Source: Planctomycetota bacterium (GTDB lineage Bacteria; Planctomycetota; PLA2; JAEUHO01). From it: a stretch of 64,000 nucleotides of DNA. A model generated the notes under the pieces. That model was not told the origin of the DNA and did not search any database. It worked only from the letters and a program-made list of their open reading frames with translations. The number at the start of each line of letters is the position of its first letter. Position 1 is the stretch's first letter. The translations under genes were made by a program, and so were the position numbers. Positions 24,852-48,112 of this stretch are shown here, piece after piece. Location: contig CBDCWP010000004.1 in the NCBI GenBank assembly GCA_965223505.1, positions 15,309-79,308 on the forward strand, written 5' to 3'.

Positions 24852-24867
24852 CACGAGCGTTGTTGCC

Positions 24868-30539: not shown

Positions 30540-30608
30540 GGGGAGCAGAGTCTGACAGGGGCTGCGGAGGCTGCCGAACATTCCCGGAAGGCGCCGCGCC
30601 TGATCCCG

Positions 30609-32057
30609 TCAGGTTCGCGCGCCCTGCGGCAGCTCACGGACGTATCGTCGGTAGGTCGCCAGCCAGCGCTCGGGATGGCGCAAGGGATGCACGTATTCGA
30701 GCAGCGCGCCCGGCAGGTCGAACGCCAGGCGGTCCGGAATCGCGTTCCACACACGACAGCGACCGAAGGTCAGTGTCGCCGACGACACCTCGCATCGGAG
30801 GAACGCGAGAAGATCGCGCGCCCAACACTCGAACACGGCGACGTAGTCGCTGACGGGATCGCCCGAGTCCACGGCGACGAACGTAGAGCGCTGCGGTTCG
30901 TACGCGTATACGAATGCGCCGTCGTCCTCCCCGTCGCGCAGCGCCAGGGCGAAGGTCGGGCGCGTCTGCGCGTCGTCCAGCGCCCCGAGCGAGTACAGGT
31001 CCTTGAAGAGGTCCCTTCCATACAGGTGCGCCGCCAACGAGCGCAGCTCGACGTCGAGGGCGTCGAGCTCCTCGTCCGAGAGCGACGCCTGCGAGGTCGC
31101 CGCGTCGTAGTCTTCGAGCCACTCGACGTCGCCGACGAACGTCCGCGCGGGCCACTCGTCCTCGGGCGAAGCGGACAGGAACGGTGTGCCGTGCGCCTGC
31201 TCGACCAACTCACCGTCTATCATCACATACGTGTCGCCGGGCCGAGGCCAACACACACGGTTCGCGGGCAGGAGCGGCTCGAGCGCGAGGGCGTGCGCGC
31301 GCCCGTCCGTCGTGAAGGCATTTCCGTTGAGCCAGGCCCGATCGCCCCCGAAGCAGAATCCGCCGCCGACGACGGCCCAGGCGGCCGGCATTCGGTGGTT
31401 CGCATCGAGCCACTCGCAGATCCCGATGGCGCTTTGCACGAACGTTGCGATCTCTTCCGGATGCGGTCCGCTCCAGCTCGTGAGGAAGTGCCACTCGCTC
31501 CAGTTGTTGGTCTGCCCCCAGACTCCGACGCGGTCGACGCGGGCACGGACCCGCTCGAGCATGTCTTGCGTCGCCGGCATGTCCACGCTGGTGAAGAAGC
31601 TGCCGTGCCCGGCCAGGTCACGTACCAGATACGGCAGGACGTCCCACTCTTCGATGATGGCGTCGCGGCGCTGATCGGCGGACATCGGCAGGAACTCGAG
31701 GCCGCCGACCGTCACGCCCTCGTCCGGGTTCAGCAGACGGACGCCGAATCCCATCTCCGCCAGGATCGTCCGCATGGCGACAGAGGAGCGCGACGACATG
31801 TAGATGGGCACCGAGCGGTCCAGGCAGTGGAGCGAGGCCAGGTCGAAGTGCCCTTCGTGTTCGTGCGTGAGCATGACCGCGTCGAGAGCCGGGAGCGCCG
31901 ATACGTCGACGCGGCGGGGCGGAAACACGCGCAGGCCGACCGCGGGCGTCAGTCCGAACGCGTCGTGCAAGAGGGGATCGACGAGGATCCGCGCATCAGC
32001 GGCCTCGAACAGCCAGCCGTGGTGGCCGAGCGCGGTCATGCGAAAGGCGTCGTTCAT
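30609..32057 (-). CDS. MBL-fold metalloprotein, paralogue 1 (putative RiPP tailoring enzyme)
   Basis: GHHGWLF, ILVDPLL, THEHEGH, FTSVD. C-terminal domain shared with paralogues 2 and 3. Confidence 0.8.
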   Translation of the reverse strand: MNDAFRMTALGHHGWLFEAADARILVDPLLHDAFGLTPAVGLRVFPPRRVDVSALPALDAVMLTHEHEGHFDLASLHCLDRSVPIYMSSRSSVAMRTILAEMGFGVRLLNPDEGVTVGGLEFLPMSADQRRDAIIEEWDVLPYLVRDLAGHGSFFTSVDMPATQDMLERVRARVDRVGVWGQTNNWSEWHFLTSWSGPHPEEIATFVQSAIGICEWLDANHRMPAAWAVVGGGFCFGGDRAWLNGNAFTTDGRAHALALEPLLPANRVCWPRPGDTYVMIDGELVEQAHGTPFLSASPEDEWPARTFVGDVEWLEDYDAATSQASLSDEELDALDVELRSLAAHLYGRDLFKDLYSLGALDDAQTRPTFALALRDGEDDGAFVYAYEPQRSTFVAVDSGDPVSDYVAVFECWARDLLAFLRCEVSSATLTFGRCRVWNAIPDRLAFDLPGALLEYVHPLRHPERWLATYRRYVRELPQGART

Positions 32058-34186
32058 GGCATCCGGGCTCGCAGGGTGTGAATCTCACCGAACACGGGCC
32101 TGAGATCCGGCGCCAATCCGAGCTGAAGCCGTCTCACCGCGCGCTCGAGGTGTGGCCCGCCGTCGGCGTCGAGCTCGGGCCACCGCAGACGCAGGGTGTT
32201 GATGCCCGATCGCACGGTCGTCGCCGGCGCCAGCACGGTCGCGCGGCTCCATTGCGCACCTGTGGTGATCCGGCCCACCTCCGTGCCGTTCAGCACGAGG
32301 GCCGACGTGCGATCGTCCTCGTCGTCGCGGGGGGCACGGAGCGTGAGCGCGAGCTCCACGGCGCGAGGCTCGACGACCAGAAAGTGGAACGTGGACTCCG
32401 GCGTCAGCGCGCGCTCGTAGGAACGCGACGTCGGATATGCGGCGAACGGCGACCCGCGGAAGTACCCGCGCGCGAGATCCTGCTCGCCGCGCTCGAGTCC
32501 GCGGGCGTCGGCCAGCAGCAGTTCGAGCCGCTCGCCGGCGCCCGGTCGCCGGCGCTCGAGGACGGCGATGACCGCGCGGACCACGGGCACGTCGAGCACG
32601 TCGTAGTCCTGCCAGCGCCAGATCCGCGCCGGCATACGGTACGGCGATTCGAACACGCGTTGCTGCGCCGACGAGAGCAGTGGGGGGGCGCAGGCCGCCT
32701 TTGCCGCGACGTAGTCCGCCAGCACCTCCTCGATGCCTTCCGAGCTGTCGAGTGCCTGCTCGATCCAGTACTCGGTGCCGGCGGCGCCGTCGGTCAGCGG
32801 ACGCTGAATGTGGGCGGTGTGCAGCGCGGCCAACATCGCGCCGCGGGCCTCGACCGTGTCCGCCGGACTCGGCGGCGGCGATGCACTCGCGACCGTTCGC
32901 CAGTCCAGCGCCTGGAAGCGAGCGGGATGGCTGACTGCCAACACCTCGGCCACGACCGCGGCCATCGCGACGTGCATGCCCTCGGGCGTCAGATGACAAT
33001 AGTCGAGGAACAACCTGCGACCGGGCAGCGGCGATGCGGCATGGTCTGCGAACACGGCCGGAAGGTCGACACACAACAGGTCGTGCGCTTGCGCCGCGTC
33101 ACGGATCGCTTGCCGGACCACCGGACTCGCACCGGGCGCCGATGCGCGTCCGAGCCAGCGCGACGCCTCGAGTCCGGCGAGCAGCGCGTCGCGCGCCGCC
33201 TCCGTCCGACCGATGCGAAGCAGTGTCGTACCGAGTGCCTGATGGGACGTGGCGCACGTTCCGTCGTCCAGGGCAAGCATCGCGCGGGCGGCGTTCTCCG
33301 CTGCCGCGAGATCGTCGTTCGCCAGCGCGTCGAGAACCTCTTGCTTGTGCGCGAGCCAGCGGCGATTCCGGTCGCCCGGCAACCACGACGGCGGGAGATC
33401 GTGCTCCCAATCCGTCAGGTTCGTCTCCGGCACGACCAACGCCATCGTGACTCCGGAGCGGTCCGCGATCGCGGCGAGCTCGGCGCACACGGCCTCCGCC
33501 TTCGACTTCAGGTGGTTCGTTGCGAGGCGCTGAAGGCCAGCCGGCCCTTCGGCGTCCAGCGCCGCCGCGTGTTCGTGCAGGAGCTCGAGCGAGAGGACGT
33601 CGGCGAACGCGGGCGCGTCCGGCGCCGCGGCGAGCCAGTTGTTGCCGGCGAACACGACGATCACGTCCGGAAGCAGCTGCAACGCGGTCCGCGAGACCTC
33701 CAGGACGCCCTCGTCCGTCTGATCGACCCGGCACAGGTCGATGACCTCGAACAGGTCCGCGCCCGCCGTTGCGTCCAGCTGGCCCTGCAGCACCTGCGCG
33801 GGCGTCAGATCCGGCGCGTACAAGAACCCCGCCGCCGTCGACTCGCCGACGAGGCAGACCCGAATCGGCAGGAACGCGTCTTTGGGTCGCAGCGTCTTGG
33901 TGAGCGCCCAGTCGTCCTCGAGCTCGAGAGGATCGGGGCGAACGAAGACCAGCTCGCCGTCGACCTCCTGGGGCTCCCAGATCCCGATGGCCTCCGGGCG
34001 GTCGGCGTCCGGATCGTCTTCGTCGGAGTACGGCTCGTCGAGCCCGGCCGGCTCGACGGCGCGCGGGACGCCGACCATGCCGGTCTGTTGCAGCAGACGC
34101 AGCGTGCGCAGTCCTTCCTCCGTTGCCAAGAGCTGCGCGAGCTCTTCGCAGGCGGCCAACGGAGGTTGTCGTCGGTCTCGGGACAT
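32054..34186 (-). CDS. SGNH/GDSL-type hydrolase with TPR-like insert
   Basis: Block I LVGESTAAG, block III VFAGNNW, block V FLDYCH. Helical TPR-like middle region. Start ATG 34186, 8 nt after the carbamoyltransferase stop. Confidence 0.72.
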   Translation of the reverse strand: MSRDRRQPPLAACEELAQLLATEEGLRTLRLLQQTGMVGVPRAVEPAGLDEPYSDEDDPDADRPEAIGIWEPQEVDGELVFVRPDPLELEDDWALTKTLRPKDAFLPIRVCLVGESTAAGFLYAPDLTPAQVLQGQLDATAGADLFEVIDLCRVDQTDEGVLEVSRTALQLLPDVIVVFAGNNWLAAAPDAPAFADVLSLELLHEHAAALDAEGPAGLQRLATNHLKSKAEAVCAELAAIADRSGVTMALVVPETNLTDWEHDLPPSWLPGDRNRRWLAHKQEVLDALANDDLAAAENAARAMLALDDGTCATSHQALGTTLLRIGRTEAARDALLAGLEASRWLGRASAPGASPVVRQAIRDAAQAHDLLCVDLPAVFADHAASPLPGRRLFLDYCHLTPEGMHVAMAAVVAEVLAVSHPARFQALDWRTVASASPPPSPADTVEARGAMLAALHTAHIQRPLTDGAAGTEYWIEQALDSSEGIEEVLADYVAAKAACAPPLLSSAQQRVFESPYRMPARIWRWQDYDVLDVPVVRAVIAVLERRRPGAGERLELLLADARGLERGEQDLARGYFRGSPFAAYPTSRSYERALTPESTFHFLVVEPRAVELALTLRAPRDDEDDRTSALVLNGTEVGRITTGAQWSRATVLAPATTVRSGINTLRLRWPELDADGGPHLERAVRRLQLGLAPDLRPVFGEIHTLRARMP

Positions 34187-34194
34187 GTCGCTCG

Positions 34195-35958
34195 TCAAAT
34201 GAAGGTGTAGACCGTCTCGCTGATTCGCCCGCGGCGGTCGGAAGCCCGTAGCCGGCGATGGTATTCCAGTGTGTGTGTCCACGACGAGGGCAGCATCTCC
34301 CGGTCGATGACGAAGTCCTCTAGGACCAGCGCGTCCAGGCGTGCGTCGACGGCGCACAGCAGGGCTTCGGCCGGCGTGCGCACGATCGGCTCGCCGCGGA
34401 CGTTGAACGACGTGTTCACCAACACGGGGCAGCCCGTCAGTTCTTCGAACGCCGAAAGCAGCGCGGCGAACCTGGGCGCGACCGATGGATCCACCGTCTG
34501 GGGGCGCGCCGATCCGTCGACGTGCGTGATCGCCGGCAGGTCGAGCTTCGAGTCGACCCGGCACGTCTCCAACATGAACGGAGACGGGTGATCGAGCGCG
34601 AAGTGTTCGGCGGTGCGATCGGCGAGCACCGCCGGCGCGAACGGCCGGAACCCCTCCCGTTTCTTGATCCGCTCGTTCAGGCGGCTCTGCATCTGCGGGT
34701 CGCGTGGGTCCGCGAGGATGCAGCGCGCGCCGAGCGCGCGGGGGCCGAACTCCATTCGGCCCTGGAACCAACCTACGACCTGTCCGGCCGCGAGTCGTCG
34801 CGCGACGTCGGCGACGAGCTGTCCTTCGTCGTGCCGGAACGCGGCTGCCTCGATCCCGACGCCCTCCAGCAGCCGCGCGACGTCGTCGCGCGCGAACGAC
34901 GGACCGAGGCAGACGTCCTCCAGTCGCCGAGTGTCCGGTCGATGCCCCGTGAGTCGCACATGCGCCAGCGCGGCGGCGCCGAGCGCGCCGCCCGCATCGC
35001 CCGCGGCCGGCTGGACGAACACGTTGCCGAACGGGCCCTCCCGCGCGATGCGACCGTTTGCGACGCAGTTGAGCGCCACGCCGCCGGCCATGCAGAGGTT
35101 GTCCGAGGCGACGAGCCCGGCGAGACGGGAGACGGCGTCGAGCAGGATGTCTTCGAGCACGACCTGCAGACTGCGAGCGATGTCCTTGTGTCGTTGGCGC
35201 AGTGGCTCGTCGGGCCGTCGTGCCGGCCCGCCGAGCAGGTCGCAGAGCGCGTCGGTGTACATGCGATCTGCGCGACGAAATTCGAAGTACGAGAGGTCGA
35301 GCGCGTAGTGTCCGGCGCCGTCCGGCGTGCTCAGCGCGCGAATCGCATCGACGCAGGTCGGTCGCCCGTAGGGAGCGAGTCCCATCACCTTGTACTCGCC
35401 ACTGTTGACAGCGAACCCGAGGTATCCGGTGATCGTGCTGTACAGCAGGCCCAGCGAGTGGGGGAAACGCACCTCGTCGAGCAACTCGATCTCGGCGCCC
35501 TGAGCGCGTCCGTAGGTCGTCGTCGCCCACTCGCCGACGCCGTCGACCGTCAGCACCGCCGCGTCGTCGAACCCGGAGAAGAAGTACGCGCTCGCCGCGT
35601 GCGACATGTGATGCTCGAAGGACTCGATCCGTCCCTCGTGGCCGAGGAGCTCGCGAATGTCCCGTTCCGGCCGTCCCGGGTCGATCCAGCGAAGATCCTG
35701 CGCTCCGCCGAGCGGACAGCCTGCCCAAATCTGTCTAGCCAGCTTGAGCGGCGGCGACTCGTAGTATGCGACACAGTCCACGTCGTCGATGTCGATCGCC
35801 CCCTCGTCCAGGCAGAATCGGAATGCATCCACGGGAAGCCGCCCGTCGTGCTTGATGCGCGAGAAGCGCTCCTGGGCGGCGGCGGCGACGAGCACGCCGT
35901 CCGAGATCAGGCAGCATGCGGACTCGTGGAAGTACATGGAGAGACCGATGATGTTCAC
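34195..35958 (-). CDS. carbamoyltransferase (NodU/CmcH/TobZ family)
   Basis: HESA, ERFSRIKH, EHHMSHAASA, DGVGE, EYKVMGLAPYG, AGGVALNC, EFGPRALG, KKREGFRPFAP, HVDGSARPQ, NTSFN. GTG start overlaps the upstream stop. Confidence 0.95.
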   Translation of the reverse strand: MNIIGLSMYFHESACCLISDGVLVAAAAQERFSRIKHDGRLPVDAFRFCLDEGAIDIDDVDCVAYYESPPLKLARQIWAGCPLGGAQDLRWIDPGRPERDIRELLGHEGRIESFEHHMSHAASAYFFSGFDDAAVLTVDGVGEWATTTYGRAQGAEIELLDEVRFPHSLGLLYSTITGYLGFAVNSGEYKVMGLAPYGRPTCVDAIRALSTPDGAGHYALDLSYFEFRRADRMYTDALCDLLGGPARRPDEPLRQRHKDIARSLQVVLEDILLDAVSRLAGLVASDNLCMAGGVALNCVANGRIAREGPFGNVFVQPAAGDAGGALGAAALAHVRLTGHRPDTRRLEDVCLGPSFARDDVARLLEGVGIEAAAFRHDEGQLVADVARRLAAGQVVGWFQGRMEFGPRALGARCILADPRDPQMQSRLNERIKKREGFRPFAPAVLADRTAEHFALDHPSPFMLETCRVDSKLDLPAITHVDGSARPQTVDPSVAPRFAALLSAFEELTGCPVLVNTSFNVRGEPIVRTPAEALLCAVDARLDALVLEDFVIDREMLPSSWTHTLEYHRRLRASDRRGRISETVYTFI

Positions 35959-37415
35959 GCCGACCTCCGCGGGCCGGGCAGACGCGGCCCGTCGTCGTGA
36001 AGCGCGGCGACGATCGAACGATAGCGCTCGCGATACGCATCCGGACGACGCAACGGATGCACGTACTCGAACAGCGGCTTGTTGAACTCGAACGCGAAGG
36101 CACGGGGATTCGCATTCCACATGCGCGAGCGTCCGAAGCAGAGCGCCGTCGTCGACATCCGGCAGGTCAACATGGCCAGGAGGTCCGTCGCCCAGCACTC
36201 GTAGACGGCGAGGAACTCCTTCGGCGGATCGGGTGACGCGACGCGCACGAACGAGCAATGCTCCGGTCGGTAGGCGAAGGCGAGCGGCTGCTCGCCGTCA
36301 CGAAGCGACAAGGCGAAGGTCGGGATCCGTCCCGCCGCGTCCGGCACGGACAGGCCGCAGATGGCGCGGTGAAGCGAACCACCGTGCAGGCTGCGCGCCA
36401 GCCCGGCCAACGCAGCTTCGAGCGCCGGGACGTGCGAACGCTCCAGCACCTCGCGACCGGAGGCCGGGCGGTAGTCCTCCAACCAAGCGACGTCGCCGCG
36501 ATGCTCCCGCGCCGGCCACGCGGCCCTCGGCGCGACGCGCACGAACGGCGAGCTCGGTCGGACCTCGGCGACCTCGCCGTTCTTCAGAATCAACGTTTCA
36601 CCGGGGACCGACGGGCGAACCGTGACGCCCGGGAGCTGCAGCGCCAGCGCGCGCGCGGCCTCGTCGTTGGTCCAGGGGAAGACCTCGTGATTGAGGAACG
36701 CTTGCTCCCCCCGGAAGCAGAAGCTCTCGCCGGTGACCAGCAGCTGCTCGGGCGCGGTCCACTCATGCGCCATCGCGGTGTGGTAGTCGACGATCGATCC
36801 CACGAAGCTGGACAGGCTGAAACGGTCCGGACGCGCCCACCGGGCCTGGAAGTGCCAGTCCGTGTTGTTGTTGGTGTACACCCAGAGCCCCGGTCGCTCG
36901 ACGAAGGAGCGTGCGCTGCGCCACATCGAAGGCGTCGGCGCCATGTCGATGTGCGTGAAGAGGTTGCCGTGTCCGTCGCGATCGCGAACCACGAACGGCA
37001 GCACGTCCCACTCCTCGACGATGCCGTTCTCCACCTGGTCCGCGGTCATCGGAAGCACGCTCAGATCCGCGCCGATCTCGACGGGACGTCCCGGTCTCGT
37101 GAGCCGAACGGAGAAGCCCATGTCGGTCAGAATCTCGCGCATCGCCGGGGACGAGCGGGACGGCATCAAGATCGGCGTGCTGCGATCCACCATGTCGATC
37201 GACGCGAGGTCGAAGTGGTCCTCGTGCTCGTGCGTGAGCAGCACGGCGTCAAGAGGCGGCGCAGCATCGAAGTCGAATCGCCGCGGCGGATGTACGGCGA
37301 GTCCTACGGCTTCGGTCGCGGCGAACGTGTCGCGCAGCAACGGGTCGACGAGCAGGGTGGAGGATGCCGTCGACACGACCCATCCGTTGTGTCCGACGTG
37401 GGTGACGGAAAACAT
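35955..37415 (-). CDS. MBL-fold metalloprotein, paralogue 2
   Basis: GHNGW, LLVDPLL, THEHEDH (intact HxHxDH), FTHID. Collinear with paralogue 1. Confidence 0.83.
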   Translation of the reverse strand: MFSVTHVGHNGWVVSTASSTLLVDPLLRDTFAATEAVGLAVHPPRRFDFDAAPPLDAVLLTHEHEDHFDLASIDMVDRSTPILMPSRSSPAMREILTDMGFSVRLTRPGRPVEIGADLSVLPMTADQVENGIVEEWDVLPFVVRDRDGHGNLFTHIDMAPTPSMWRSARSFVERPGLWVYTNNNTDWHFQARWARPDRFSLSSFVGSIVDYHTAMAHEWTAPEQLLVTGESFCFRGEQAFLNHEVFPWTNDEAARALALQLPGVTVRPSVPGETLILKNGEVAEVRPSSPFVRVAPRAAWPAREHRGDVAWLEDYRPASGREVLERSHVPALEAALAGLARSLHGGSLHRAICGLSVPDAAGRIPTFALSLRDGEQPLAFAYRPEHCSFVRVASPDPPKEFLAVYECWATDLLAMLTCRMSTTALCFGRSRMWNANPRAFAFEFNKPLFEYVHPLRRPDAYRERYRSIVAALHDDGPRLPGPRRSA

Positions 37416-37419
37416 GACG

Positions 37420-38625
37420 TCAAAGCGCCTTCCGATAGCGCTCGGCGAAACGCTCGGGGAACCGATGCGGGTGGATGTGTGCTTCCAAGGCGCTCGCGAG
37501 CTCGAATGTGAACCGTGGATGCGCGACGGAGGTGCTCTGCGAGCCGGTCCGCGTCAGCGTCTCCGGCAGGATCTCGGCACGCAACGTCATCAACAAGTCC
37601 GTTGCCCAGCACTCGAAAACGGCGACGTAGTCGTCGATCGTTCGACTGTCGTGAAGCAGCCGGAACGCGCATGCGTGCGGCGCGTACTCGAACACGTGCC
37701 CTTCGCGATCCGTACTTCGCAAGAAGAGTGCAACCGTTGGACGCTTGCCCGGATGCTCCTGGGGCGAGAGCGAGTAGAGCTCGCGAAACAAACGCTTGCC
37801 GTACAGGTGTCTTGCCAATGTGTTCAGCTCAGCGCGAAGCTCCGCGATCTCTCCGTCCGAGAGCGCGCCGCGTCCGCACAGCGGACCGTTCTCCAGCGTG
37901 TCTTCGATGGGTTCCCGGGCGTCCACATAGGCGTCATCGCTCTCGTGTTCGACGACCGTTCCACGGCGGACGCCGAAGCGCTGCCCCGGAGCCCACGCGC
38001 GCACGTCGTCTTGCGGCAGGAGCTGCGCGAGAACGCCGGCTTGTGCCTGCGCGCCCGTCGCCGGTCCATCGGCGATCAACAGGCCCGCCGGGCGTGCCCA
38101 CTGCCGGCTCATGCGCCGGTGCGCCCCGGCCAGCGCCAGGATGCCTTCATGCGCCGGCGCCGGGTACACCACCAACCCGGGGACGTCGAGTGCGGCGCTC
38201 GCCGCCGCGCACTCCACGGATGAGGGCGCTCCGTCGATCGGCATGAAGAGACTGCCCTCCGCGTCGGCGTCGCGAACGACGCACCCGAGCGCACCCCACG
38301 CTCGGCCGGCGTCGGCGATGTCCGCCACCGTGTCGACGCGCAGCGTTCCGATGTCCAGCGTCTCTCCACCGTGCACACGCTGCGTCGCGAAGCCCAGCTC
38401 CTCGATGACGACGACCATTGCGGTGGACGCATGCGCGGACACGTAGATCGGGACGCTGCGATCCAGCCCCGCGAGCGACGTAGGATCGAACGCTCGTTCG
38501 CGTGGCAGAAACACGGCGTCAGGCGCGTGTCCGCGGTCCACTCGGAACGCGTCACCGATGATCAGGTGCCCGCGACGCCCGCGCACCGACCAGGTGCGAC
38601 TGCCCAGGTACGTGGCCGTGAACAT
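37420..38625 (-). CDS. degenerate MBL-fold paralogue 3 (no metal-binding motif)
   Basis: Shares LDRSVPIY, VFECWATDLL and HPHRFPERF..RYR with paralogues 1 and 2. The THEHExH segment is absent. Confidence 0.72.
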   Translation of the reverse strand: MFTATYLGSRTWSVRGRRGHLIIGDAFRVDRGHAPDAVFLPRERAFDPTSLAGLDRSVPIYVSAHASTAMVVVIEELGFATQRVHGGETLDIGTLRVDTVADIADAGRAWGALGCVVRDADAEGSLFMPIDGAPSSVECAAASAALDVPGLVVYPAPAHEGILALAGAHRRMSRQWARPAGLLIADGPATGAQAQAGVLAQLLPQDDVRAWAPGQRFGVRRGTVVEHESDDAYVDAREPIEDTLENGPLCGRGALSDGEIAELRAELNTLARHLYGKRLFRELYSLSPQEHPGKRPTVALFLRSTDREGHVFEYAPHACAFRLLHDSRTIDDYVAVFECWATDLLMTLRAEILPETLTRTGSQSTSVAHPRFTFELASALEAHIHPHRFPERFAERYRKAL

Positions 38626-38655
38626 CGACGCCCCGTCCTTGCCGGCAAGACCTTG

Positions 38656-38898
38656 CTAGGAGGAGACGTTGTCGTTGGTGTTGCCGTTGTTGAGTCGGTT
38701 CTGCACGGCCCACAACGCGTTGACGGCAGGTGTGTTCTTCTGACCGATGGCCCAGAGGGCGTTCAGGGCCGTGTTGGTGCCCCCGATGGCGTTGCTGGCG
38801 CTGGGGTGTCGCATCCCCCCGCGCATCTCCCGCAACTCTTTCTTGGGGATCGTCCGGGTCTTGCCCGTCAACTGGACGCGCCGTGCTCGCTTCTTCAT
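38656..38898 (-). CDS. double-glycine RiPP precursor peptide A (80 aa)
   Basis: RBS GAGAGG. Leader ...IPKKELREMRGG followed by a 52-aa Asn-rich core with NALWA twice. Near a C39 ABC exporter. Confidence 0.8.
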   Translation of the reverse strand: MKKRARRVQLTGKTRTIPKKELREMRGGMRHPSASNAIGGTNTALNALWAIGQKNTPAVNALWAVQNRLNNGNTNDNVSS

Positions 38899-38928
38899 GG
38901 CAACCTCTCAGGTTATCGACCCCTGCGC

Positions 38929-38958
38929 ATCGTAGCACTTCTGCGCGGCGCCATGCAA
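38929..38958 (-). promoter_or_regulatory. candidate sigma-70 promoter for precursor A and tailoring genes
   Basis: TTGCAT-N18-TACGAT with an extended -10 TG, about 30 nt upstream of ATG 38898. Confidence 0.4.
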
Positions 38959-39047
38959 GGCCACCAGCGCATGGCGACCCCCGCCATATGTTCACGATTA
39001 TCGACATCGGCTGTACGGCGCAGATACAAGCCGTATCGACGCCGAAT

Positions 39048-39082
39048 CCGTCCCGCCGGCCACTCGCGGGCCGACGGGACGG
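39048..39082 (-). terminator. 14-bp stem-loop after precursor B
   Basis: Minus strand CCGTCCCGTCGGCC-N7-GGCCGGCGGGACGG (one G-U pair), 12 nt downstream of the TAG at 39095-39097. Confidence 0.55.
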
Positions 39083-39094
39083 TGGTTTGCGCTT

Positions 39095-39300
39095 CTAGAA
39101 AACCTGGTTCGCGAAATGCACCGCGTCCTGCACGCCGTTGCTTGCGGGGTTGATGAAGACGGAGTAGATGTCGCCTTCGGAGGCGGGAAGAGGGCGCTCG
39201 GCCAACCCGAAGTAACCACGGCAACGCCGGCGGCGTTGTCACTGAGGCCCCCGCGGGTCAAACGCATGTCCTTCTTGGAAAGCTGCTTCGTGAAGTCCAT
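39095..39300 (-). CDS. double-glycine RiPP precursor peptide B (apparent 1-nt frameshift; ORF track gives 38998-39309)
   Basis: Leader MDFTKQLSKKDMRLTRGG. Adding one C at the C-run (+ strand GGG 39185-39187) gives the core LSDNAAGVAVVTSGWPSALFPASEGDIYSVFINPASNGVQDAVHFANQVF*, with GC3-rich codons and a downstream hairpin. Confidence 0.62.
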
Positions 39301-39455
39301 CCTCGTCAAGTGGTTTCAACCAGCCGAGCGGGATGCTCGACCGGGGGTGGGAGTCTAGCAGGCCACCGTTGAAGCCCTTTGCGGCGAAGCGTCCGAATCG
39401 AAGACCAAGACGACGTTCACTCTGCGCGACACTCTCCGTTCACTCAGCGCGGCCG

Positions 39456-41747
39456 TCACTTGTTCCTCGGCGGCGTGTTCGCGCGGACCGCTTCGATGAG
39501 GACGTCGCCGGTGGTCTGCAGGCTCGCCCGCGATACCCGCTCCACGCGGTCCTCCGACGTGTGTCGGAATCGATTGCGACCGGCGCGTCGAACGGGATCG
39601 GCGCCGCCGAAGTCGAAGTCGCACAGCAACGCCGCCGGGATGCCGGCGCGAAGAAACGGGATGTGGTCGTTGCGCACGGCGATCGGAATGCTGTGGGCGC
39701 GCGCTATCTCGAAGTAGCGTCCGTAGCCCAACCGTGCTCCGGCGTCGAGCAGCGATGCCGCCACCGACGTCGTGGAGCGTAGATCGTCGGTGAACTGCAG
39801 TCGCTCGTCGCCGACCATGTCGCAGACGACGACCGCGATCAGCCGGTCGACCTCGCCGGCGGCGACGACGTGCTCGACGAATGCGCGGCTGCCGTACAAG
39901 CCGTGGCGCGGACCCGAACGCCCCAGCGCCTCCTTGCCGTCGAAGAACGCGATCCGCACCGCCGGACGGGGCTTCATGGCCGCCAGGACACGCGCGCACT
40001 CGATCAGGACGGCGGCGCCAGAAGCGCCTTCGTTCGCGCCGGTGAAACCCGACACCCCCTCCAGCCGCTTCGTGTCGAGGTGCGTCGCGAGAAGAACGTA
40101 TCGTTCGTCACGCTCGCCTGGCAACGAGGCGAGCGTGTTCTTCAGGACCCGTCCCCCGCCCGGCGTTTGCACTGCGACGTCCTCGATCTCCACTGACCAA
40201 CCCGCGGCCTCGAGCTGCGCGCGCACGTACCCGCGTGCGTTCTCCAGGGCCTCGCTGCCGAGGGGACGCGGACCCAGCTCGGCCAGGGCGACGAGGTCCG
40301 CCATCGAACGATCGGCGTCGAACGGCGTTCGCGCAGCGGGCGCCGGTCGCGGCGAGAGCGGCGGCGGCGCTTCGGTCGGCGTCGTCGGCGTCACCGCGGC
40401 GCCTCCGCTCAGGCCGAACAGGCGACGCACCGGTTCGAAGAGCAAGCTGACGATCCGCGGTCGCTCGGTCACGATCTCCGCGGAGAGCGTCAGCCCTGCG
40501 CGCAGTGCAAGCCCCTCCGGTGCGTCGCCTTGCACACGCTGTACGGCGAGGCGTCCGGTGAACACCGACGCGCCCGTCGTAGGGTCCTCCGTCGGTACCA
40601 GCGCGACACTCTCCAACCGTGCCTTCACGACGCCGAAGCGCTCGAACGGATACGCGTCGAGCTTGATCTTGCAGAGCGCGCCGGGTCGCAGAGCCGCGGC
40701 GTCGCGATTGGCGAACGTCGCGGTCGCCGCCACGTGGGGGGACGTGGAGATCGAAAATGCAGGCGTGTCCGCCTCGACCCGGTCGCCCGGAACGATCGGC
40801 GCCGCGAAGTTGATCAACCCGCTCACCGGCGCATGCAGGACCAGCAGCTCGAGCACGCGCTCGCTCGCGTCGATCTCCGCCTCGAGCTTCTCGATGTCCG
40901 CGCGCGCCGTGTCGCGGGTGGCCCGCGTACGCGCGGCCGCGTCGCGCAGCGCGGCCTGCGCGGATTCCAGTCGGCTCTTCGCGGCGGCGACGCGTTCGTC
41001 GGCTTCGATGGTGATCACGTCGAGCGCCTGACGCGCCTCGCGCAACGCCGCTTTCGCACCCTCGACGAGTCCGCGCTGCGCGTCACGCTTGGCGATCGCC
41101 GCGTCGTGCGTCTCGCCGTCGATCAGCTTCTTCTTGTACAACGTCGTCGCGCGCTCGGCCGCCTTGTCGTCCCTACGAAGGGTGGCTTCGGCGGCGGTCA
41201 GCGCCGCCTGCTTGGCCTCGAGGCGTGCGCGCTCGAGCTCCACCCGGCGCGGAATGACCGTCTCGCGATGACGCAGCTCTCGCGTGTGCGCGTCGCGCGC
41301 TGCGCGCCAGTCTTCGATCGTCTCGGCGGCGGCGACGTCGGCGACGGCCTTCGCTTCGCCCGACGCCAGGAGGGCCGCCAGCGCGGTGACGGTCTCGTCG
41401 AGGGTCGTCCACTGCCGGTGCGCGCGACCGTGGTCCTTGCGCAGCCGCTCCAGACGCCCGCGTTCGGCTGCGTCTTCCAACCGCAGGAGCAGCTGTCCGG
41501 CTCGCACCTGCTCGCCTTCGGCCGCGTAGACCTCCGCGACGACGCCGGCGGTCGAGAGCCGTACGTCCGTGCGCTCGTCCACGGCGACGAGCAGCCCGCG
41601 GCCGACGACGACCCGATCGACGCGCACGACCGTCACGAACGTTCCGACCGCGCCCAGCAGGAGGAGCAACAGCCACAACAGCAGCCGACGCCCGCGCGCG
41701 CCGACCGCGGGCTTGGCGGGACGGGGCAGGATGGCGCCGCCGCTCAT
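39456..41747 (-). CDS. HlyD-family adaptor fused to an M28 peptidase/glutaminyl-cyclase-like domain
   Basis: TM helix, GEQVRAGQLLLRL, coiled coil, APVSG, KLDAYPFERFG, LRAGLTLSAEI. Then a Pro/Thr linker, then THLDTK, GANEGASG, FFDGKE, LYGSR, DMVGD, NDHIPF, RHT. Confidence 0.85.
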   Translation of the reverse strand: MSGGAILPRPAKPAVGARGRRLLLWLLLLLLGAVGTFVTVVRVDRVVVGRGLLVAVDERTDVRLSTAGVVAEVYAAEGEQVRAGQLLLRLEDAAERGRLERLRKDHGRAHRQWTTLDETVTALAALLASGEAKAVADVAAAETIEDWRAARDAHTRELRHRETVIPRRVELERARLEAKQAALTAAEATLRRDDKAAERATTLYKKKLIDGETHDAAIAKRDAQRGLVEGAKAALREARQALDVITIEADERVAAAKSRLESAQAALRDAAARTRATRDTARADIEKLEAEIDASERVLELLVLHAPVSGLINFAAPIVPGDRVEADTPAFSISTSPHVAATATFANRDAAALRPGALCKIKLDAYPFERFGVVKARLESVALVPTEDPTTGASVFTGRLAVQRVQGDAPEGLALRAGLTLSAEIVTERPRIVSLLFEPVRRLFGLSGGAAVTPTTPTEAPPPLSPRPAPAARTPFDADRSMADLVALAELGPRPLGSEALENARGYVRAQLEAAGWSVEIEDVAVQTPGGGRVLKNTLASLPGERDERYVLLATHLDTKRLEGVSGFTGANEGASGAAVLIECARVLAAMKPRPAVRIAFFDGKEALGRSGPRHGLYGSRAFVEHVVAAGEVDRLIAVVVCDMVGDERLQFTDDLRSTTSVAASLLDAGARLGYGRYFEIARAHSIPIAVRNDHIPFLRAGIPAALLCDFDFGGADPVRRAGRNRFRHTSEDRVERVSRASLQTTGDVLIEAVRANTPPRNK

Positions 41748-44700
41748 CCCACCTGCTCCGCGTGGAACATGGCATACAAGCCGCCTTGCTCGAGGAGGGC
41801 GGCGTGGGTGCCTTGCTCGGCGACGCGGCCCCGTTCGAGCACCACGATGCGATCCGCCCGCCGCGCGTACCCGAGGCGGTGCGCGAGGAACACCACGGTG
41901 CGGTCGCGGCTGGTCTCGTCCAACGCGTTCAAGAGCGCGGCCTCGCTTTCCATGTCGAGCGAGCTCGTCGGCTCGTCGAGCAGCAGGAGTCTCGGCTGCC
42001 CCACGAGCGCGCGCGCGATCGCGAGACGTTGGAGCTCACCGCCGGAGAACCGTGCCGTGCTCCGCTCGCCGACGAGCGTACCGTAACCCTGCGGGCGATT
42101 GATGATCTGGTCGTGGATCCCCGCAGCCTGCGCAGCGGCGATGATGTCCGCTGCTGCGAGCTCGCGGCCGACCGCGATGTTCTCCATGATCGTTCCGGAA
42201 AGCAGCTCGATCTTCTGCGGAACGAATCCGACCTGGCGGCGCAGCGATCGCGCCGAGACGTTGCGCAGGTCGTGACGATCGACGTAGACCGAACCCTTCT
42301 CGGGTTGAAAGAGCTTCAGCAGCAGATGAACGAATGTGGTCTTGCCCGCGCCGCTGCGTCCGACGATCGCGACGCGTTCGCCGGGCAGGACCTCGAGCGA
42401 GAGATCTTCGAAGACCGGCGGTAGGTCCCGTTCGTAGCGAAACGTGACATTCTCCAGGCGAATGTGGCCTTCCACGGAGCCGATGTCGAGCAACGACTCC
42501 GTCTGCGGTTCCTCCGGCGAAGCGTCGAACACCTGGCTGAGCCGCTCGAGCGAGACCGCCGTCTCCTGAAAGCTCTCCCAGATCCCCAGCAAGCGCGTCG
42601 CGGGCGCGAGCACCTGGGCTAGCACGGCCGAGAAAGCGACGTACGCACCGACGCTGAGCGAACCGTCGATCACGAACCGTGCGCCGAAGTAGATGACCGC
42701 GGCTTGGCCGCACGCGCCAATGAACGTGCCGAGCGTCTGCGACAACGTCACGAGGCGCACCCCGCGCAGCTCCGAGGCGAGCATCCGGTGGAAGAGACGC
42801 TCGTATCGGCGCCGTTCCGCATGTTCCGCGTTCGCGCCCTTGACCGTGACGACCGACGAGAGCGAGTCGACGAGGGCGGACTGGGTCTCGCCCTGGCGGG
42901 TCACCTGCTCTCGGCGGATGCGACGCAGGCGCGGTGTGATGAACCACGTGAGCAGTGCCAACAGCGGAATCGGAAACAGTCCGATGATTGCGAGCTCGAC
43001 GTCGTAGCACAGGAGCACGATCAGGTACACGGCCCCCAACGCGACGTCCAGGATGGCGCCCGTCGCGACGGTCGTGAGGAAGTGACGGACCTTCTCGTTG
43101 TCCGCGAACCGCACGAGCAGGTCGCCGACCTTGCGCGACGCGAAGAACTGCAGCGGCAGGCGAAAGAGCTTGTGGTGGAAATCGCTCACCAGCGCCAGGT
43201 CGGCCGCACGCACGACGTCGTAGAGCAGCAGCGTGCGCAGCGCGCCGATCAGCGCGGAGAAGAGCGCGGCGCCGATCATCGCGGCCAACAACGCGATCAG
43301 GATCGACACCTCGCCGTGGACGAACACCCGATCGATGACGGTCTGTGTCGTGAAGGGGATGACGAGACCAAGCAGCTGCAATGTGAAGGCGGCCAGCAGC
43401 ACCTGGAAGATGACGCCGCGGTGGGGCCGCAGGTAGGGCAGAAAGCGCGAGAGCCCCTTCGGTCGTCCGCCCGCGTCTTCGGGCGGCGCGGAGGTGGGCC
43501 GCAACAACAGCAAGGTGCCGTCCCACCCTTCCATGAACGCCTTGAGCGGTATGCGCTTGAGCCCCTGCATCGGGTCTGCCACGACGACACGTCGTCGCGA
43601 GACGGCGTACAAGACGACGAAATGATTGCCGCCGACGTGCGCGATGGCGGGCAGCCGCACGTTGCGCAGGTCGTCCGCCCCTTCGACGCCGACGCCGCGG
43701 GCGAGGAAGCCGATGTCCTCGGCGGCTTCGGCCAGCGACAGGAGGGAACAGCCTTGCTGCGAGACGCACGCGAGCTCGCGCAGCCGCCCGTGCAACGCCG
43801 GCCGTCCGTAGAAGTCCGCGATCATGCCCAGGCAGGCCGGACCGCAGTCGGTCGCGTCCGGTTGGAGCCGCAAGGGGTACCTGTGCAACGCCCGTCGCAG
43901 TGCGCGTCCGACGAGCGTGCCCGGCGGTTCCAGCAGACGGGGATCGAGCGCCTCTTCGAGCTCCTCCTCGACGGTTTCATGCGACGCGCTGCGTGTCGGC
44001 GTGCGGCGTCCGCGGTGCGACAGGGCGGCCACGAGGGTCGCGAAGAACGGCCGCAGGGCCCGCGCCTCTTCGTCGGACGCGGCAAGCACGAGCCGCCGCC
44101 CCGGCGACAGCGCCACGATGTCGGCCGGCTCCGGCGTGTCGAGCGCCATGCCGGCTTCGCCGAAGGTGTCGCCGCTCACCAGCATGCGCGGCGAGTCGTG
44201 CGCGTCCCCGGCCTCGCGGCGAGCGCGTCCTTCGACAAGGAGCGAGAAGCCGTCGGCGCGCTCGCCCTGGCGGGCCAACACGTCGCCGGCGGCGAACGCC
44301 TGGGGTGCGAGCGCGAGGACGACGTTGCGGACGATCTCGGCGTCGACGGACGTCGCGTCGAGATCGTCCAAGAAGGCACGCAGCGCCGGCTCCCCGAGCG
44401 CGGCCGTCAACGGTCGAAGCGACGGGTCGTTGTCGAGCACGCTTCGATCGAGGCGCAACACGGTCATCGCCGTCTCGACGTGCACGGCATCGCCGCCCGG
44501 CGCCTCGCCGAAGAGCTGTCCCCGGAACGCGACGCCGCCTTGTCCGACGGGCGCGTCGCCGCCCTCGGATCTCCCCATCCCGTCGAGCACGAGTAGGGCG
44601 CCCTTGGACGGCGGGATCACGGCGCCGCGTTTGAAGCGTGCGCGCTCGCCGTGCGCCGCGAGTTCCGTGCAGGCGTTGCGTCCGAGCACCCGCAGCACGG

Positions 44701-44752
44701 CGTCGGCGAGTAGCAACCGGGCTGTTCGCCGGAGTTCGGGGTCGTCCTGCAC
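41744..44752 (-). CDS. peptidase-containing ABC transporter (cNMP-binding-like, C39, TMD, NBD)
   Basis: Q..ATDCGPACL, NHFVVL, VADP (C39 triad intact). GRSGAGKTT, FSGGELQR, LLLDEPTSSLD. N-terminal cNMP-like segment GDVLARQGE..GDTFGE. Confidence 0.92.
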   Translation of the reverse strand: MQDDPELRRTARLLLADAVLRVLGRNACTELAAHGERARFKRGAVIPPSKGALLVLDGMGRSEGGDAPVGQGGVAFRGQLFGEAPGGDAVHVETAMTVLRLDRSVLDNDPSLRPLTAALGEPALRAFLDDLDATSVDAEIVRNVVLALAPQAFAAGDVLARQGERADGFSLLVEGRARREAGDAHDSPRMLVSGDTFGEAGMALDTPEPADIVALSPGRRLVLAASDEEARALRPFFATLVAALSHRGRRTPTRSASHETVEEELEEALDPRLLEPPGTLVGRALRRALHRYPLRLQPDATDCGPACLGMIADFYGRPALHGRLRELACVSQQGCSLLSLAEAAEDIGFLARGVGVEGADDLRNVRLPAIAHVGGNHFVVLYAVSRRRVVVADPMQGLKRIPLKAFMEGWDGTLLLLRPTSAPPEDAGGRPKGLSRFLPYLRPHRGVIFQVLLAAFTLQLLGLVIPFTTQTVIDRVFVHGEVSILIALLAAMIGAALFSALIGALRTLLLYDVVRAADLALVSDFHHKLFRLPLQFFASRKVGDLLVRFADNEKVRHFLTTVATGAILDVALGAVYLIVLLCYDVELAIIGLFPIPLLALLTWFITPRLRRIRREQVTRQGETQSALVDSLSSVVTVKGANAEHAERRRYERLFHRMLASELRGVRLVTLSQTLGTFIGACGQAAVIYFGARFVIDGSLSVGAYVAFSAVLAQVLAPATRLLGIWESFQETAVSLERLSQVFDASPEEPQTESLLDIGSVEGHIRLENVTFRYERDLPPVFEDLSLEVLPGERVAIVGRSGAGKTTFVHLLLKLFQPEKGSVYVDRHDLRNVSARSLRRQVGFVPQKIELLSGTIMENIAVGRELAAADIIAAAQAAGIHDQIINRPQGYGTLVGERSTARFSGGELQRLAIARALVGQPRLLLLDEPTSSLDMESEAALLNALDETSRDRTVVFLAHRLGYARRADRIVVLERGRVAEQGTHAALLEQGGLYAMFHAEQVG

Positions 44753-44844
44753 GCGCCGGATTCTACGGGAACGCGTCGTGGGATCGGGCGGCCTGGCAAA
44801 CCCGGCCGTCTGTCAAATGCCGAACACGCCGAGCGATCCGACCG

Positions 44845-46194
44845 CTACTCGCCCGCTTCGTCGGCTTCGGCCAACCCGTATCGAAGCAGCTTGCGGTACA
44901 GCGTCTTGCGATCGACGCCCAGGATCGCCGCCGCGCGCCGGCGAACACCGCCGACGCTCTTCAGCACCGACAAGATGTGCGCGCGCTCGACCGCTTCCAG
45001 CGTCTGCAGCGAACCCGGCGCCGCGTCCGACTTGCGCTCGTTCCCGTGGCGAATGACCGAAGGCAGCTCGTCCACGTCGATGCGCGGACCGCGCGCGAGC
45101 GCCACGGCGCGCTCGATCACGTGCGCCAGCTCCCGGACGTTGCCGGGCCACGGATACGAGTGCAGCGCGGCGAGGGCGTTGTCCGTGATCTTCGCCGCCT
45201 TGCCGGCCGTGGCGAATCGGCGTAGGAAGTGGCCGACGAGCAACGGAATGTCCTCGACGCGATCGCGCAACGGCGGAACGCGGATCGTCACCGCGTTCAA
45301 GCGATACAGGAGATCCTCGCGGAAGCTCCCGTCCCGAACGGCCGTATCGAGGTCGCAGTTCGTGGCCGCGAGCACACGCACGTCCACGTGGCGCACCGAC
45401 GACGACCCCACGCGCCGCACCTCGTTGGACTCGAGCACGCGCAGCAGCTTCGCCTGCACGGCTAGGGGCATGTCCCCGATCTCGTCGAGCAGGATCGTGC
45501 CCTTGTCCGCGGCTTCGAAGAGACCGGGACGGTCCGCGTTCGCGCCGGTGAACGCGCCGCGCACGTGGCCGAACAGTTCGCTCTCCAGCAGTCCCTCCGG
45601 CAACGAGGGACAGTTCACGGCGACGTACGGACCGCTCGAGCGCGGGCCCGCGTCGTGGATCGCGCGCGCAACCAGTTCCTTGCCGGTGCCGGTCTCGCCT
45701 TGCACGAGCACGGACACCGTCAGGGGTGCGACGCGCGCGATCGACTTGAACACCCGCGTCATGGCCTCCGAGCGGCCGACCATCGCGCGCTTCGCTTCGC
45801 CGCGCTCCATCGACGCCTCGCCCGCCTCGCCGCGCGCCTCGGCGGCGCGCTTCACCATGCGGCAGATCTCGTCCATGGAGAACGGCTTGCTCATGTAGTC
45901 GAACGCGCCGGCGTGAATCGCCTCGACGGCCGTCTCCAGCGACCCGAACGCGGTGACGACGATCGCTTGCAGCTTCGGATCCCGCTCGCGCAGCGTGCGC
46001 ATGAGCTCGATGCCGTCCATGCCCTCGAGCCTTACGTCCGTGACGACGACGTCCACCGTCTCGCCGTTCATCGCCTCCAACGCGGACTCCGCGCTGTCGG
46101 CCGCGCTCACGTCGTAGCCTTCGCCTCGCAGGACCTCGACGAGGAGGTTGCGCGCAACCGCGTCGTCTTCCACGATCAACACGCTCGTGCCCAT
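44845..46194 (-). CDS. sigma-54-dependent response regulator (NtrC/AtoC family)
   Basis: REC domain (VEDD, TDV, KPF), GETGTGKE, ESELFGH, GAFTGA, WPGNVREL, Fis-type HTH. Confidence 0.93.
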   Translation of the reverse strand: MGTSVLIVEDDAVARNLLVEVLRGEGYDVSAADSAESALEAMNGETVDVVVTDVRLEGMDGIELMRTLRERDPKLQAIVVTAFGSLETAVEAIHAGAFDYMSKPFSMDEICRMVKRAAEARGEAGEASMERGEAKRAMVGRSEAMTRVFKSIARVAPLTVSVLVQGETGTGKELVARAIHDAGPRSSGPYVAVNCPSLPEGLLESELFGHVRGAFTGANADRPGLFEAADKGTILLDEIGDMPLAVQAKLLRVLESNEVRRVGSSSVRHVDVRVLAATNCDLDTAVRDGSFREDLLYRLNAVTIRVPPLRDRVEDIPLLVGHFLRRFATAGKAAKITDNALAALHSYPWPGNVRELAHVIERAVALARGPRIDVDELPSVIRHGNERKSDAAPGSLQTLEAVERAHILSVLKSVGGVRRRAAAILGVDRKTLYRKLLRYGLAEADEAGE

Positions 46195-46195
46195 C

Positions 46196-46999
46196 TCAGC
46201 GCTCCTCGCCCAGCGGCTCGATGGTGAGCGTGACCACGGTGCCGATGCCCGGCTTGGAGTCCAGAAGGATGTCGCCACCGTGCGCCTTCGCGATCTCCCG
46301 GCAGATGGCGAGACCGAGGCCGGATCCGCGGCCCGCCCCCTTGGTCGAGAAGAAGGGCTCGAAGACGTGGTCCATGTGCCGCGACGAGACCCCGTGCCCG
46401 GAGTCGCAGACGGAGATGGCGCGGCCGGCGCCGGTGGCGTCGGTTCGAATGACGAGCGTGCCGCCCTTGGGCATCGCGTCGATCGCGTTTTGAACGAGAT
46501 TGAGGAAGACCTGTTCGAGCTGATCGCGGTCGCACGCGATCGGCGCTTCCGACCCGGCGCCGATGTCGAGTTCGAGTTGAATCTCGTTCTTGGTCAGCAG
46601 AGGTTCGAGAACGTCGAGGACGTGCACGAGCAGGGCGTGAATGTCGGTCGGCGTCGGCTCGGGCTCGGGGCCTCGCAGTCGGCGCAGGTAGCGCCGAATG
46701 AGCAGCGAGAGGCGAGAGACCTGGTCCGCGATGATCTCGGTGCGGCGGCGCGCGTCGTCCGGAAGCGCCGGGTCCGCGAGCATGAGGTCGAGATGTCCGG
46801 AGATGGAGTGCAGAGGCGTGCCGAGCTCGTGCGCGAGACGGCCGACCAACGCGCCGAGTGCGGCGACCCGCTGCGCTTGCGCGAGCTTGCGCTGCATGTC
46901 GAGCAGGGTCGGCGACGTCGCGTCCTGCGTGGGCTCGGACGGCGGCGTCTGCGTGGCGCGCTCTTCGCTCTGACGCGCATCCGCGTTCATACGTGACAC
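46196..46999 (-). CDS. sensor histidine kinase lacking an obvious input domain
   Basis: AHELGTPL, QVFLNLVQNAIDAM, DSGHG, FEPFFSTK, GSGLGL. No TM helix. Start uncertain. Confidence 0.88.
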   Translation of the reverse strand: MSRMNADARQSEERATQTPPSEPTQDATSPTLLDMQRKLAQAQRVAALGALVGRLAHELGTPLHSISGHLDLMLADPALPDDARRRTEIIADQVSRLSLLIRRYLRRLRGPEPEPTPTDIHALLVHVLDVLEPLLTKNEIQLELDIGAGSEAPIACDRDQLEQVFLNLVQNAIDAMPKGGTLVIRTDATGAGRAISVCDSGHGVSSRHMDHVFEPFFSTKGAGRGSGLGLAICREIAKAHGGDILLDSKPGIGTVVTLTIEPLGEER

Positions 47000-47084
47000 T
47001 CCGCGCGTGGTGCGCGTTCACATGATACGCGGGGAGCCGGTCGACCGCAGTCCGCGGAGGTCATGCGGTCGACCGTCGTCGGCG

Positions 47085-47852: not shown

Positions 47853-48112
47853 GGGTCGAAAACTCCGAAGATCGCCGCTGCCAAGCACGCAGCGGGCCAA
47901 CTGCGGCGAGGTGCCGAATTCCGCCTCCGAGGCGCCCCCGACCGACCCGGCGGGGCATTTTGCCCCTCGCGTGGGGCAGTTGGCCCCAGCGCCGCGCCCG
48001 ATGTGCGCGTCCGCGGGCGTCTTCTTCCGGCGCAGCGAGGCCGGCGCGGACCTCGCGTCGCGTGGCACGCACGTTGCGAAGCGGTGGATCGATCCTTTCA
48101 CAGGAGGTTCCC

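Follow-up and report, generated by a model that had tools for sequence, protein, structure and literature searches.

A double-glycine-leader peptide with an Asn-rich, internally repeated core, encoded beside MBL, carbamoyltransferase and TldD/E genes: a candidate modified peptide

The leaders of double-glycine (GG) peptides follow a consensus with an acidic residue at position -8 and hydrophobic residues at positions -4, -7 and -12, and the export logic of the systems that handle them is already known. For ribosomal peptides that are enzymatically modified (RiPPs), three described pathways come closest to the enzymes considered here. The Std cluster is reported to encode a NodU-like carbamoyltransferase, StdF, that converts a RiPP lysine to homocitrulline (PMC13174530). 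Crocagin biosynthesis is reported to rely on the carbamoyltransferase CgnI and on CgnE, a paralog without a metal site that serves as peptide recruiter (PMC10070186). PQQ production is reported to involve the hydroxylase PqqB together with tldD (PMC9851590).

We analyzed a stretch of 64,000 nucleotides (hereafter the window) that contains one small gene of interest, precursor A. With NHLP, Nif11, class II microcin and bacteriocin precursors, precursor A has in common a GG leader in which position -8 is E and positions -12, -7 and -4 are hydrophobic, and the locus shares with the same double-glycine peptide systems an adjoining C39-ABC exporter and HlyD adaptor. Our analysis reveals that precursor A is a real small gene for a GG-leader peptide with an Asn-rich, internally repeated core. 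The claim that it encodes a secreted GG-leader precursor, probably enzyme-modified, is supported.

A small gene at the head of an enzyme string

The open reading frame (ORF) at 38656-38898 on the minus strand, to which the initial annotation had drawn attention, translates as described there into 80 aa followed by a stop codon. Its GC content by codon position is 0.51/0.49/0.90, which resembles that of its neighbors (GC3 of 0.80-0.93), and a ribosome-binding site, GAGAGG, lies 5 nt 5' of the ATG. An alternative start, the TTG at codon 10, would yield a 19-aa leader of the same length as that of a second GG-leader ORF nearby (ORF B), but of the two starts it is the ATG that has the better ribosome-binding site. 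When we searched for homologues with a word index covering 5.8 billion clusters, the sole match was the query itself, and tblastn against the one related locus that we confirmed (L001, see below) found nothing; as far as sequence searches go, precursor A is an orphan peptide within the protein set searched. The genes and elements of its surroundings, listed in their order along the minus strand, are as follows.

46196-46999, minus strand: histidine kinase, 267 aa
44845-46278, minus strand: sigma-54 response regulator
41744-44752, minus strand: cNMP-binding domain, C39 peptidase and ABC exporter in one protein of 1002 aa (C39 1.4e-28; ABC_membrane 3e-38)
39456-41747, minus strand: HlyD-type adaptor fused to an M28 peptidase domain, 763 aa (HlyD_3 1.5e-12; M28 2.8e-27)
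39095-39300, minus strand: ORF B, second GG-leader ORF, ATG at 39300, leader MDFTKQLSKKDMRLTRGG
39048-39082, minus strand: GC-rich hairpin 3' of ORF B, with no U-run (-38 kcal/mol, z = -3.57)
38656-38898, minus strand: precursor A, 80 aa plus stop (from translation, GC3 and ribosome-binding site)
37420-38625, minus strand: MBL0, 401 aa, no Pfam match
35955-37415, minus strand: MBL1, 486 aa, motif HEHEDH
34195-35958, minus strand: NodU/TobZ-type carbamoyltransferase, 587 aa (Carbam_trans_N 2e-70; Carbam_trans_C 2e-67)
32054-34186, minus strand: 710-aa protein with a weak SGNH/GDSL match and TPR-like features
30609-32057, minus strand: MBL2, 482 aa, motif HEHEGH
29106-30581, minus strand: TldD
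27769-29322, minus strand: TldE/PmbA, true start probably downstream of 29322

The kinase, regulator, exporter and adaptor genes thus precede a spacer of 557 bp, which separates HlyD-M28 from precursor A, and behind precursor A come MBL0, MBL1, the carbamoyltransferase, the 710-aa gene, MBL2, TldD, TldE/PmbA and RtcB. From precursor A through TldD the gaps measure 30, 4, -4, 8, -4 and 27 nt, the start of the carbamoyltransferase gene overlapping the MBL1 stop (GTGA) and the start of MBL2 that of the 710-aa gene (ATGA), a spacing that suggests one transcription unit. The arrangement looked for in a RiPP locus is present, namely a small gene co-oriented and tightly linked (-4 to 30 nt) with putative tailoring enzymes. 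The last gene of the series, which encodes an RtcB-family RNA ligase (26419-27693, minus strand), lies 75 nt past TldE on the same strand. For the 710-aa protein, the GDSL match scores 26.2 bits, under the cut-off of 32.9, and a language-model search leads to clusters of hypothetical proteins of about 700 aa and to remoter GDSL/TPR relatives (0.98-0.99). The isoelectric points of the cluster proteins were uninformative.

On the export side, the C39 domain of the exporter displays all three of its motifs, with Cys in DCGPAC, His in NHFVV and Asp in ADP, residues that we take to be catalytic. A C39-ABC exporter carrying these motifs and an HlyD adaptor in the same locus would make a putative cognate exporter for a GG-leader peptide. 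The best specific NCBIfam match of the exporter is NHLM_micro_ABC1 (3.7e-146), whose 488 bits stay below the cut-off of 853. A scan by consensus of positions 38300-39700 returned neither promoters nor terminators.

About 400 bp upstream of precursor A, ORF B continues after its leader MDFTKQLSKKDMRLTRGG as LSDNAAGVAVV... Its first 36 codons have a GC3 of 0.81, which then drops to 0.51, and an alternative frame rises to 0.84 and ends ...INPASNGVQDAVHFANQVF (...FANQVF) at 39095, so that the coding signal changes frame near 39190-39215. ORF B is probably an apparently frameshifted second precursor, a paralog of A, which would make it either a pseudogene or the product of a sequence error. BLASTP found no alignment between its distal part and the core of precursor A. 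The hairpin that follows (39048-39082) is matched in folding energy by 2 of 200 shuffles. Elsewhere in the window, a REP-like palindromic element of about 38 nt, with the stem GGGCAGCC...GGCTGCCC, occurs in five copies at 6098-6308 and again at 24322-24895, there inside three tandem 168-nt units; two tRNA genes lie at 6383-6455 and 59368-59440, both on the minus strand with 70 bits in Rfam, the first of them adjoining the REP-like repeats.

The leader and the Asn-rich core of precursor A

Translation divides the product of precursor A into a basic leader and a core with the following features.

38815-38898, minus strand: leader, residues 1-28, net charge +9, ends ELREMRGG (translation; BLASTP similarity to the ORF B leader)
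38659-38814, minus strand: core, residues 29-80, with 11 Asn and three AxNA[IL] units, each followed by N-T
38779-38784, minus strand: second GG, residues 39-40, its upstream context a poor GG-leader match on direct reading
38749-38763, minus strand: NALWA copy 1, residues 46-50, AAC GCC CTC TGG GCC
38707-38721, minus strand: NALWA copy 2, residues 60-64, AAC GCG TTG TGG GCC

The initial annotation had proposed a 28-aa leader matching the pattern LSxxELxxIxGG, and translation bears out both its length and its end, IPKKELREMRGG. E, L, G and G of the pattern are identical in the leader, with I in place of L, M in place of I and P in place of S, which was scored as four of six specified positions identical and two conservative. 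The residues diagnostic of double-glycine leaders are all present, that is, G-G at -2/-1, E at -8 and the hydrophobic I, L and M at -12, -7 and -4. The expression E[LIVM]xx[LIVM]xGG matches only two places in the six-frame translation of the window, one of which is this leader, and the leaders of A and ORF B are related (9 of 25 residues identical, E = 3e-4 by BLASTP). NHLP and Nif11 leader models gave no match, as precursor A hit no NCBIfam model at E ≤ 0.01 and no Pfam model at E ≤ 10.

As for the core, counting upholds the composition first reported, 52 aa with 11 Asn and no Cys, to which 8 Ala and 2 Trp can be added. Asn makes up 11 of 52 core residues (21%) vs. 112 of 6607 (1.7%) in 12 other cluster proteins, a difference with a binomial P of about 1e-9; the absence of Cys, in contrast, is unremarkable (P = 0.56). 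The AxNA[IL] unit, said to occur three times, does so with starts at residues 34, 44 and 58, and the second GG is likewise where it had been noticed, at residues 39-40. A few residues past each unit comes an N-T, in the contexts TNT, KNT and GNT. Two of the units are NALWA, a motif found at only these two places in the six-frame translation of the window, and when the core was shuffled 200,000 times with its composition preserved, an exact 5-mer repeat arose in just 890 cases (0.45%). Both the Asn enrichment and the repeated 5-mer exceed chance.

The two NALWA copies are written with different codons, as the initial annotation had it, two of five being different and synonymous (GCC/GCG and CTC/TTG). 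Counted from codons over the 8-residue unit A-[LV]-N-A-L-W-A-[IV], 17 of 24 bases are identical between the copies, and the changes amount to two synonymous and two conservative codons. Because only 17 of 24 bases agree, the repeat is no recent DNA duplication. Our preferred reading of the three AxNA[IL] units would be that they repeat one structural or recognition element, maintained in the protein sequence. The earlier statement that the motif is conserved at protein level holds in part: the codon changes within the peptide's own repeats fit it, but the small peptide encoded at L001 lacks NALWA. The expectation that NALWA or an Asn bias would recur at related loci failed at that locus, whose 46-aa peptide also has only 2 Asn in 46 residues. 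It thereby speaks against the initial annotation's conjecture that the motif would mark modification sites (Asn or Trp) or multiple cores. This counter-evidence weighs little, since the MBL and TldD/E genes are all that L001 has in common with the window.

Cys-based RiPP classes (lanthipeptides, thiazole/oxazole peptides and sactipeptides) do not suit a core with 0 Cys, and no LanM/LanB, YcaO or radical SAM domain was found among the 18 ORFs scanned. The core contains a single Lys, K54, located between the two NALWA units.

The MBL family and a related locus

The three MBL proteins are paralogs. MBL1 and MBL2 are the closest pair (47% identical, E = 2e-136), and MBL0 is 31% identical to MBL1 (E = 2e-40) and 32% to MBL2 (E = 1e-48). 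Where MBL1 and MBL2 have HEHEDHFD and HEHEGHFD, MBL0 reads PRERA--FD, and it is also devoid of equivalents of H9, E135 and D137. To judge by these sequences, MBL0 is a predicted pseudo-enzyme, a paralog of MBL1/2 without the metal site, the HxHxDH motif having been lost. In a set of 15 billion proteins, MBL0 is its own representative at 50% identity.

A profile search with the MBL family recovered 2424 representatives at E ≤ 1e-3, a number that fell to 245 at E ≤ 1e-30. Neither Pfam nor NCBIfam has a model for the C-terminal 300 aa of the family. HxHxDH is present in 127 of 152 family sequences (P0004-P0155), the other 25 being fragments, members of the HEHEGH subtype, or degenerate. In an alignment of 68 rows, five residues do not vary (D24, H64, H67, D157 and D411), H62 and E135 each occur in 67, and D66 is replaced by Gly in 9. 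In a tree of 69 sequences, MBL0, MBL1, MBL2, the L001 MBL and every Gly-type member fall together into a clade of 12 (support 0.94). Some members of the family are fused to a DUF6065, DUF6445 or GT2 glycosyltransferase domain (P0022, P0030, P0056), fusions that hint at multi-step tailoring roles. Among plasmids, tblastn with MBL1 returned five records with a coverage of 21-26%, all of which we rejected as generic MBL hydrolases.

The predicted structure of MBL1 (pLDDT 96.4) has as its best fold matches the diiron β-hydroxylases CmlA (E = 1.6e-10, TM 0.37) and FrsH (6e-10), with generic MBL hydrolases scoring within one order of magnitude of them (3x2z, 1.9e-9). By sequence, the nearest proteins are NAPE-PLD (5e-11), FrsH (3.8e-9) and CmlA (6.8e-9), in matches that cover only the first 100-120 residues or so. 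Taken at face value, the predicted fold and the sequence matches would fit an oxygenase or a hydrolase alike and do not separate the two. What can be said of a CmlA-like site is that the model has an MBL fold, that HxHxDH is present and that E135, D157 and D411 are conserved, their equivalence to metal ligands being drawn from spacing and from general knowledge of CmlA. Complex prediction with MBL0, MBL1 and precursor A scored 0.00 in two runs, which speaks neither for nor against binding.

A scan of genome contigs for similar loci gave 34 pattern matches, of which one was confirmed, L001, in an alphaproteobacterial metagenome-assembled genome.

L001, 9809-9949, plus strand: ORF for a 46-aa peptide, 52 nt before an MBL homologue

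This ORF has a GAGG 6 nt before its ATG and a GC3 of 0.83, and is followed by a 12-bp hairpin and a U-run, terminator-like in appearance. The peptide recurs in three database clusters at 87-100% identity with a conserved stretch ...GDGGV[TC]HTDNWR..., which includes DNW; its sequence is unrelated to that of precursor A. TldD (62% identical) and TldE (48%) are found within 9 kb, at 18469-21307. Between the peptide/MBL pair and TldD/E, genes on the other strand encode CotH kinase, PI3/4-kinase-like, arylsulfotransferase-like and PP2C-cNMP proteins. Of the 13 window proteins tested, 8 had no match at L001, including the exporter, the carbamoyltransferase and the 710-aa protein. Both in the window and at L001, genes of this MBL clade have a small peptide gene and TldD/E as neighbors. 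The adjacency of TldD/E in two loci is weak evidence, because TldD/E are widespread housekeeping genes.

Candidate pathway, alternatives and known systems

We lean, with modest confidence, toward a reading in which precursor A encodes a ribosomal secreted peptide whose leader is cut by C39 and whose core is probably modified by the enzymes of the operon. The C39 domain of the adjacent ABC exporter would cut the basic leader after Gly27-Gly28, working with the HlyD-M28 adaptor, and the periplasmic M28 domain may then trim the new N terminus of the exported core. Before export, the Asn-rich core would probably be modified by the products of the genes behind precursor A. MBL1 and MBL2, two putative metal-binding MBL-fold enzymes from an uncharacterized family of about 480 aa, would act on the core; MBL0, most likely a noncatalytic peptide-binding partner, would hold the strongly basic leader (net +9) for them. 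The NodU-type carbamoyltransferase could carbamoylate a hydroxyl group (of Ser, Thr or one installed enzymatically) or Lys54, and TldD/E would degrade or trim unmodified peptide. All of the modification chemistry at this locus is something we infer. For precursor A itself, we regard as established the gene, its leader motif, the repeat and the excess of Asn; for its surroundings, the order of the genes, their family assignments and the fact that MBL0 has lost the motif. As a new kind of modified peptide, precursor A is a candidate and not a proof. The more ambitious version, a new RiPP class in which an MBL trio with MBL0 as metal-free leader scaffold β-hydroxylates or otherwise alters AxNALW units, NodU carbamoylates, and TldD/E with M28 finish the product, strikes us as distinctly unlikely on present evidence. 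Were it true, the uncharacterized MBL proteins of about 480 aa, with 245 clusters at E ≤ 1e-30, would amount to a widespread family of peptide-modifying enzymes.

Several other readings have to be weighed against the modified, secreted peptide. Precursor A might encode an unmodified peptide of the class II microcin or bacteriocin kind, with the downstream genes serving immunity or unrelated metabolism, a minority view that we nonetheless take seriously. Such peptides are normally exported by just this kit, a GG leader with C39-ABC and HlyD. The core, which has Ser-Ser at its end and an abundance of Asn, Ala, Gly, Ser and Thr, has a make-up typical of class II microcins, and the pair of neighboring GG-leader ORFs, A and B, is reminiscent of two-peptide bacteriocin loci. 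An Atlas language-model search, in which 0.9 is the level that counts and the top score was 0.78, gave leads to a cluster with 19% ComC members (0.77) and to a class II bacteriocin cluster (0.75). Against these points stand the overlapping start and stop codons and the short gaps that tie precursor A to seven downstream genes, and the L001 member of the MBL clade, which also adjoins a small peptide gene. Nor does the core give an amphipathic-helix signal, its maximal hydrophobic moment of 0.40 being reached by 4195 of 5000 shuffles. Inspection of the ORFs of at least 25 aa in 38900-39460, and of the genes directly downstream of precursor A, brought up no small membrane immunity gene, a soft result, as such genes are hard to recognize. 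The ComC lead, weak as it is, and the histidine kinase and response regulator directly upstream of the exporter would also suit a GG-leader pheromone (ComC/BlpC-like), exported by C39-ABC and sensed through the neighboring kinase and sigma-54 regulator. We consider this very unlikely: the first NCBIfam match in the 267-aa kinase ORF begins at residue 26-36, which leaves no room for a membrane sensor domain; a core of 52 aa is long for a pheromone; and the enzyme operon would be left unexplained. Moreover, no sigma-54 site was found before precursor A or the exporter, where the best candidate has 4 mismatches in 11, and over the whole window the pattern matches 431 times vs. 507 expected, which is noise.

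The repeats themselves invite the idea of a multi-core precursor from which each AxNA[IL]W unit is freed as a separate small product, and the three units, the second GG and the presence in the cluster of the processive peptidases TldD/E and M28 would be in keeping with it. However, direct reading of the translation finds no recurring recognition or cleavage sequences flanking the units, which are unequal in length, and the context of the second GG, MRHPSASNAIGG, is without the acidic and hydrophobic positions of the leader, so that we give this idea slightly less credence still than the pheromone. Finally, high-GC DNA is rich in spurious ORFs (129 of at least 40 aa overlap 30000-48000), and a chance ORF would also account for the missing homologue among 5.8 billion clusters. 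An antisense ORF at 38747-38935 has a GC3 of 0.87, a value that its mirror frame predicts, and its direction opposes that of the whole cluster. That precursor A is no gene at all is nevertheless the reading in which we believe least, to the point of near dismissal, given a GC3 pattern, a ribosome-binding site and a strand that agree with the cluster, a GG leader beside a C39 exporter with a paralogous leader (E = 3e-4) 400 bp upstream, and an Asn excess (P = 1e-9) that is the opposite of GC-rich noise.

If the core is modified, as in the reading that we favor, a role in making peptide natural products would fall to an MBL-fold family that has no assigned function and numbers hundreds of metagenomic members, and the peptide would offer a substrate that can be tested and that brings its own repeats. 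If it is not, precursor A would still encode an unusual Asn-rich secreted peptide of a GC-rich bacterium, with a nonstandard export kit made of a cNMP-gated C39-ABC pump and an HlyD-M28 fusion. The literature covered, which did not extend to subscription-only papers, holds no description of this enzyme set or of the NALWA motif; the peptide, the grouping of an MBL trio, a carbamoyltransferase and TldD/E in one locus, and protein architectures such as cNMP-C39-ABC and HlyD-M28 are all absent from what we found.

How, then, does the locus differ from the systems it resembles? Compared with known double-glycine exporters, the exporter here has an N-terminal cNMP-binding domain and its adaptor a C-terminal M28 domain, and precursor A differs from NHLP, Nif11 and bacteriocin precursors in matching none of their models and in a leader with an additional basic N-terminal stretch. 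The association of a NodU-type enzyme with a ribosomal peptide is shared with Std, K54 being the possible target here (PMC13174530), but StdF is reported to carry a fused S8/S53 peptidase and to act together with YcaO-TfuA and MNIO enzymes, none of which occurs at this locus. With crocagin (CgnA, CgnB/CgnE/CgnC and CgnI) the locus shares a precursor, a carbamoyltransferase and a pair of paralogs one of which has no metal ligands (PMC10070186). The crocagin core, however, is a C-terminal tripeptide, and neither a GG leader nor C39 export belongs to the pathway; we rejected membership in a crocagin-type family, as CgnB/CgnE are there M29-aminopeptidase-like rather than MBL-fold.

TldD/E as a peptidase of a RiPP pathway is common to this locus and, as reported, to microcin B17 and PQQ (PMC5810440, PMC9851590). 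Unlike in those pathways, the leader here should already be off via C39. PqqB has an MBL fold, but MBL1 matches no PqqB model in NCBIfam. With CmlA and FrsH, MBL1 shares HxHxDH, and its conserved E135 lies 73 residues past the first His; in CmlA, the ligand Glu377 lies about 72 residues past the first His. The TM-score is nevertheless only 0.37, and the C-terminal 300 aa or so of MBL1 have no solved relative. Lastly, the substrates of CmlA are carrier-protein-bound amino acids, unlike the ribosomal peptide proposed here.
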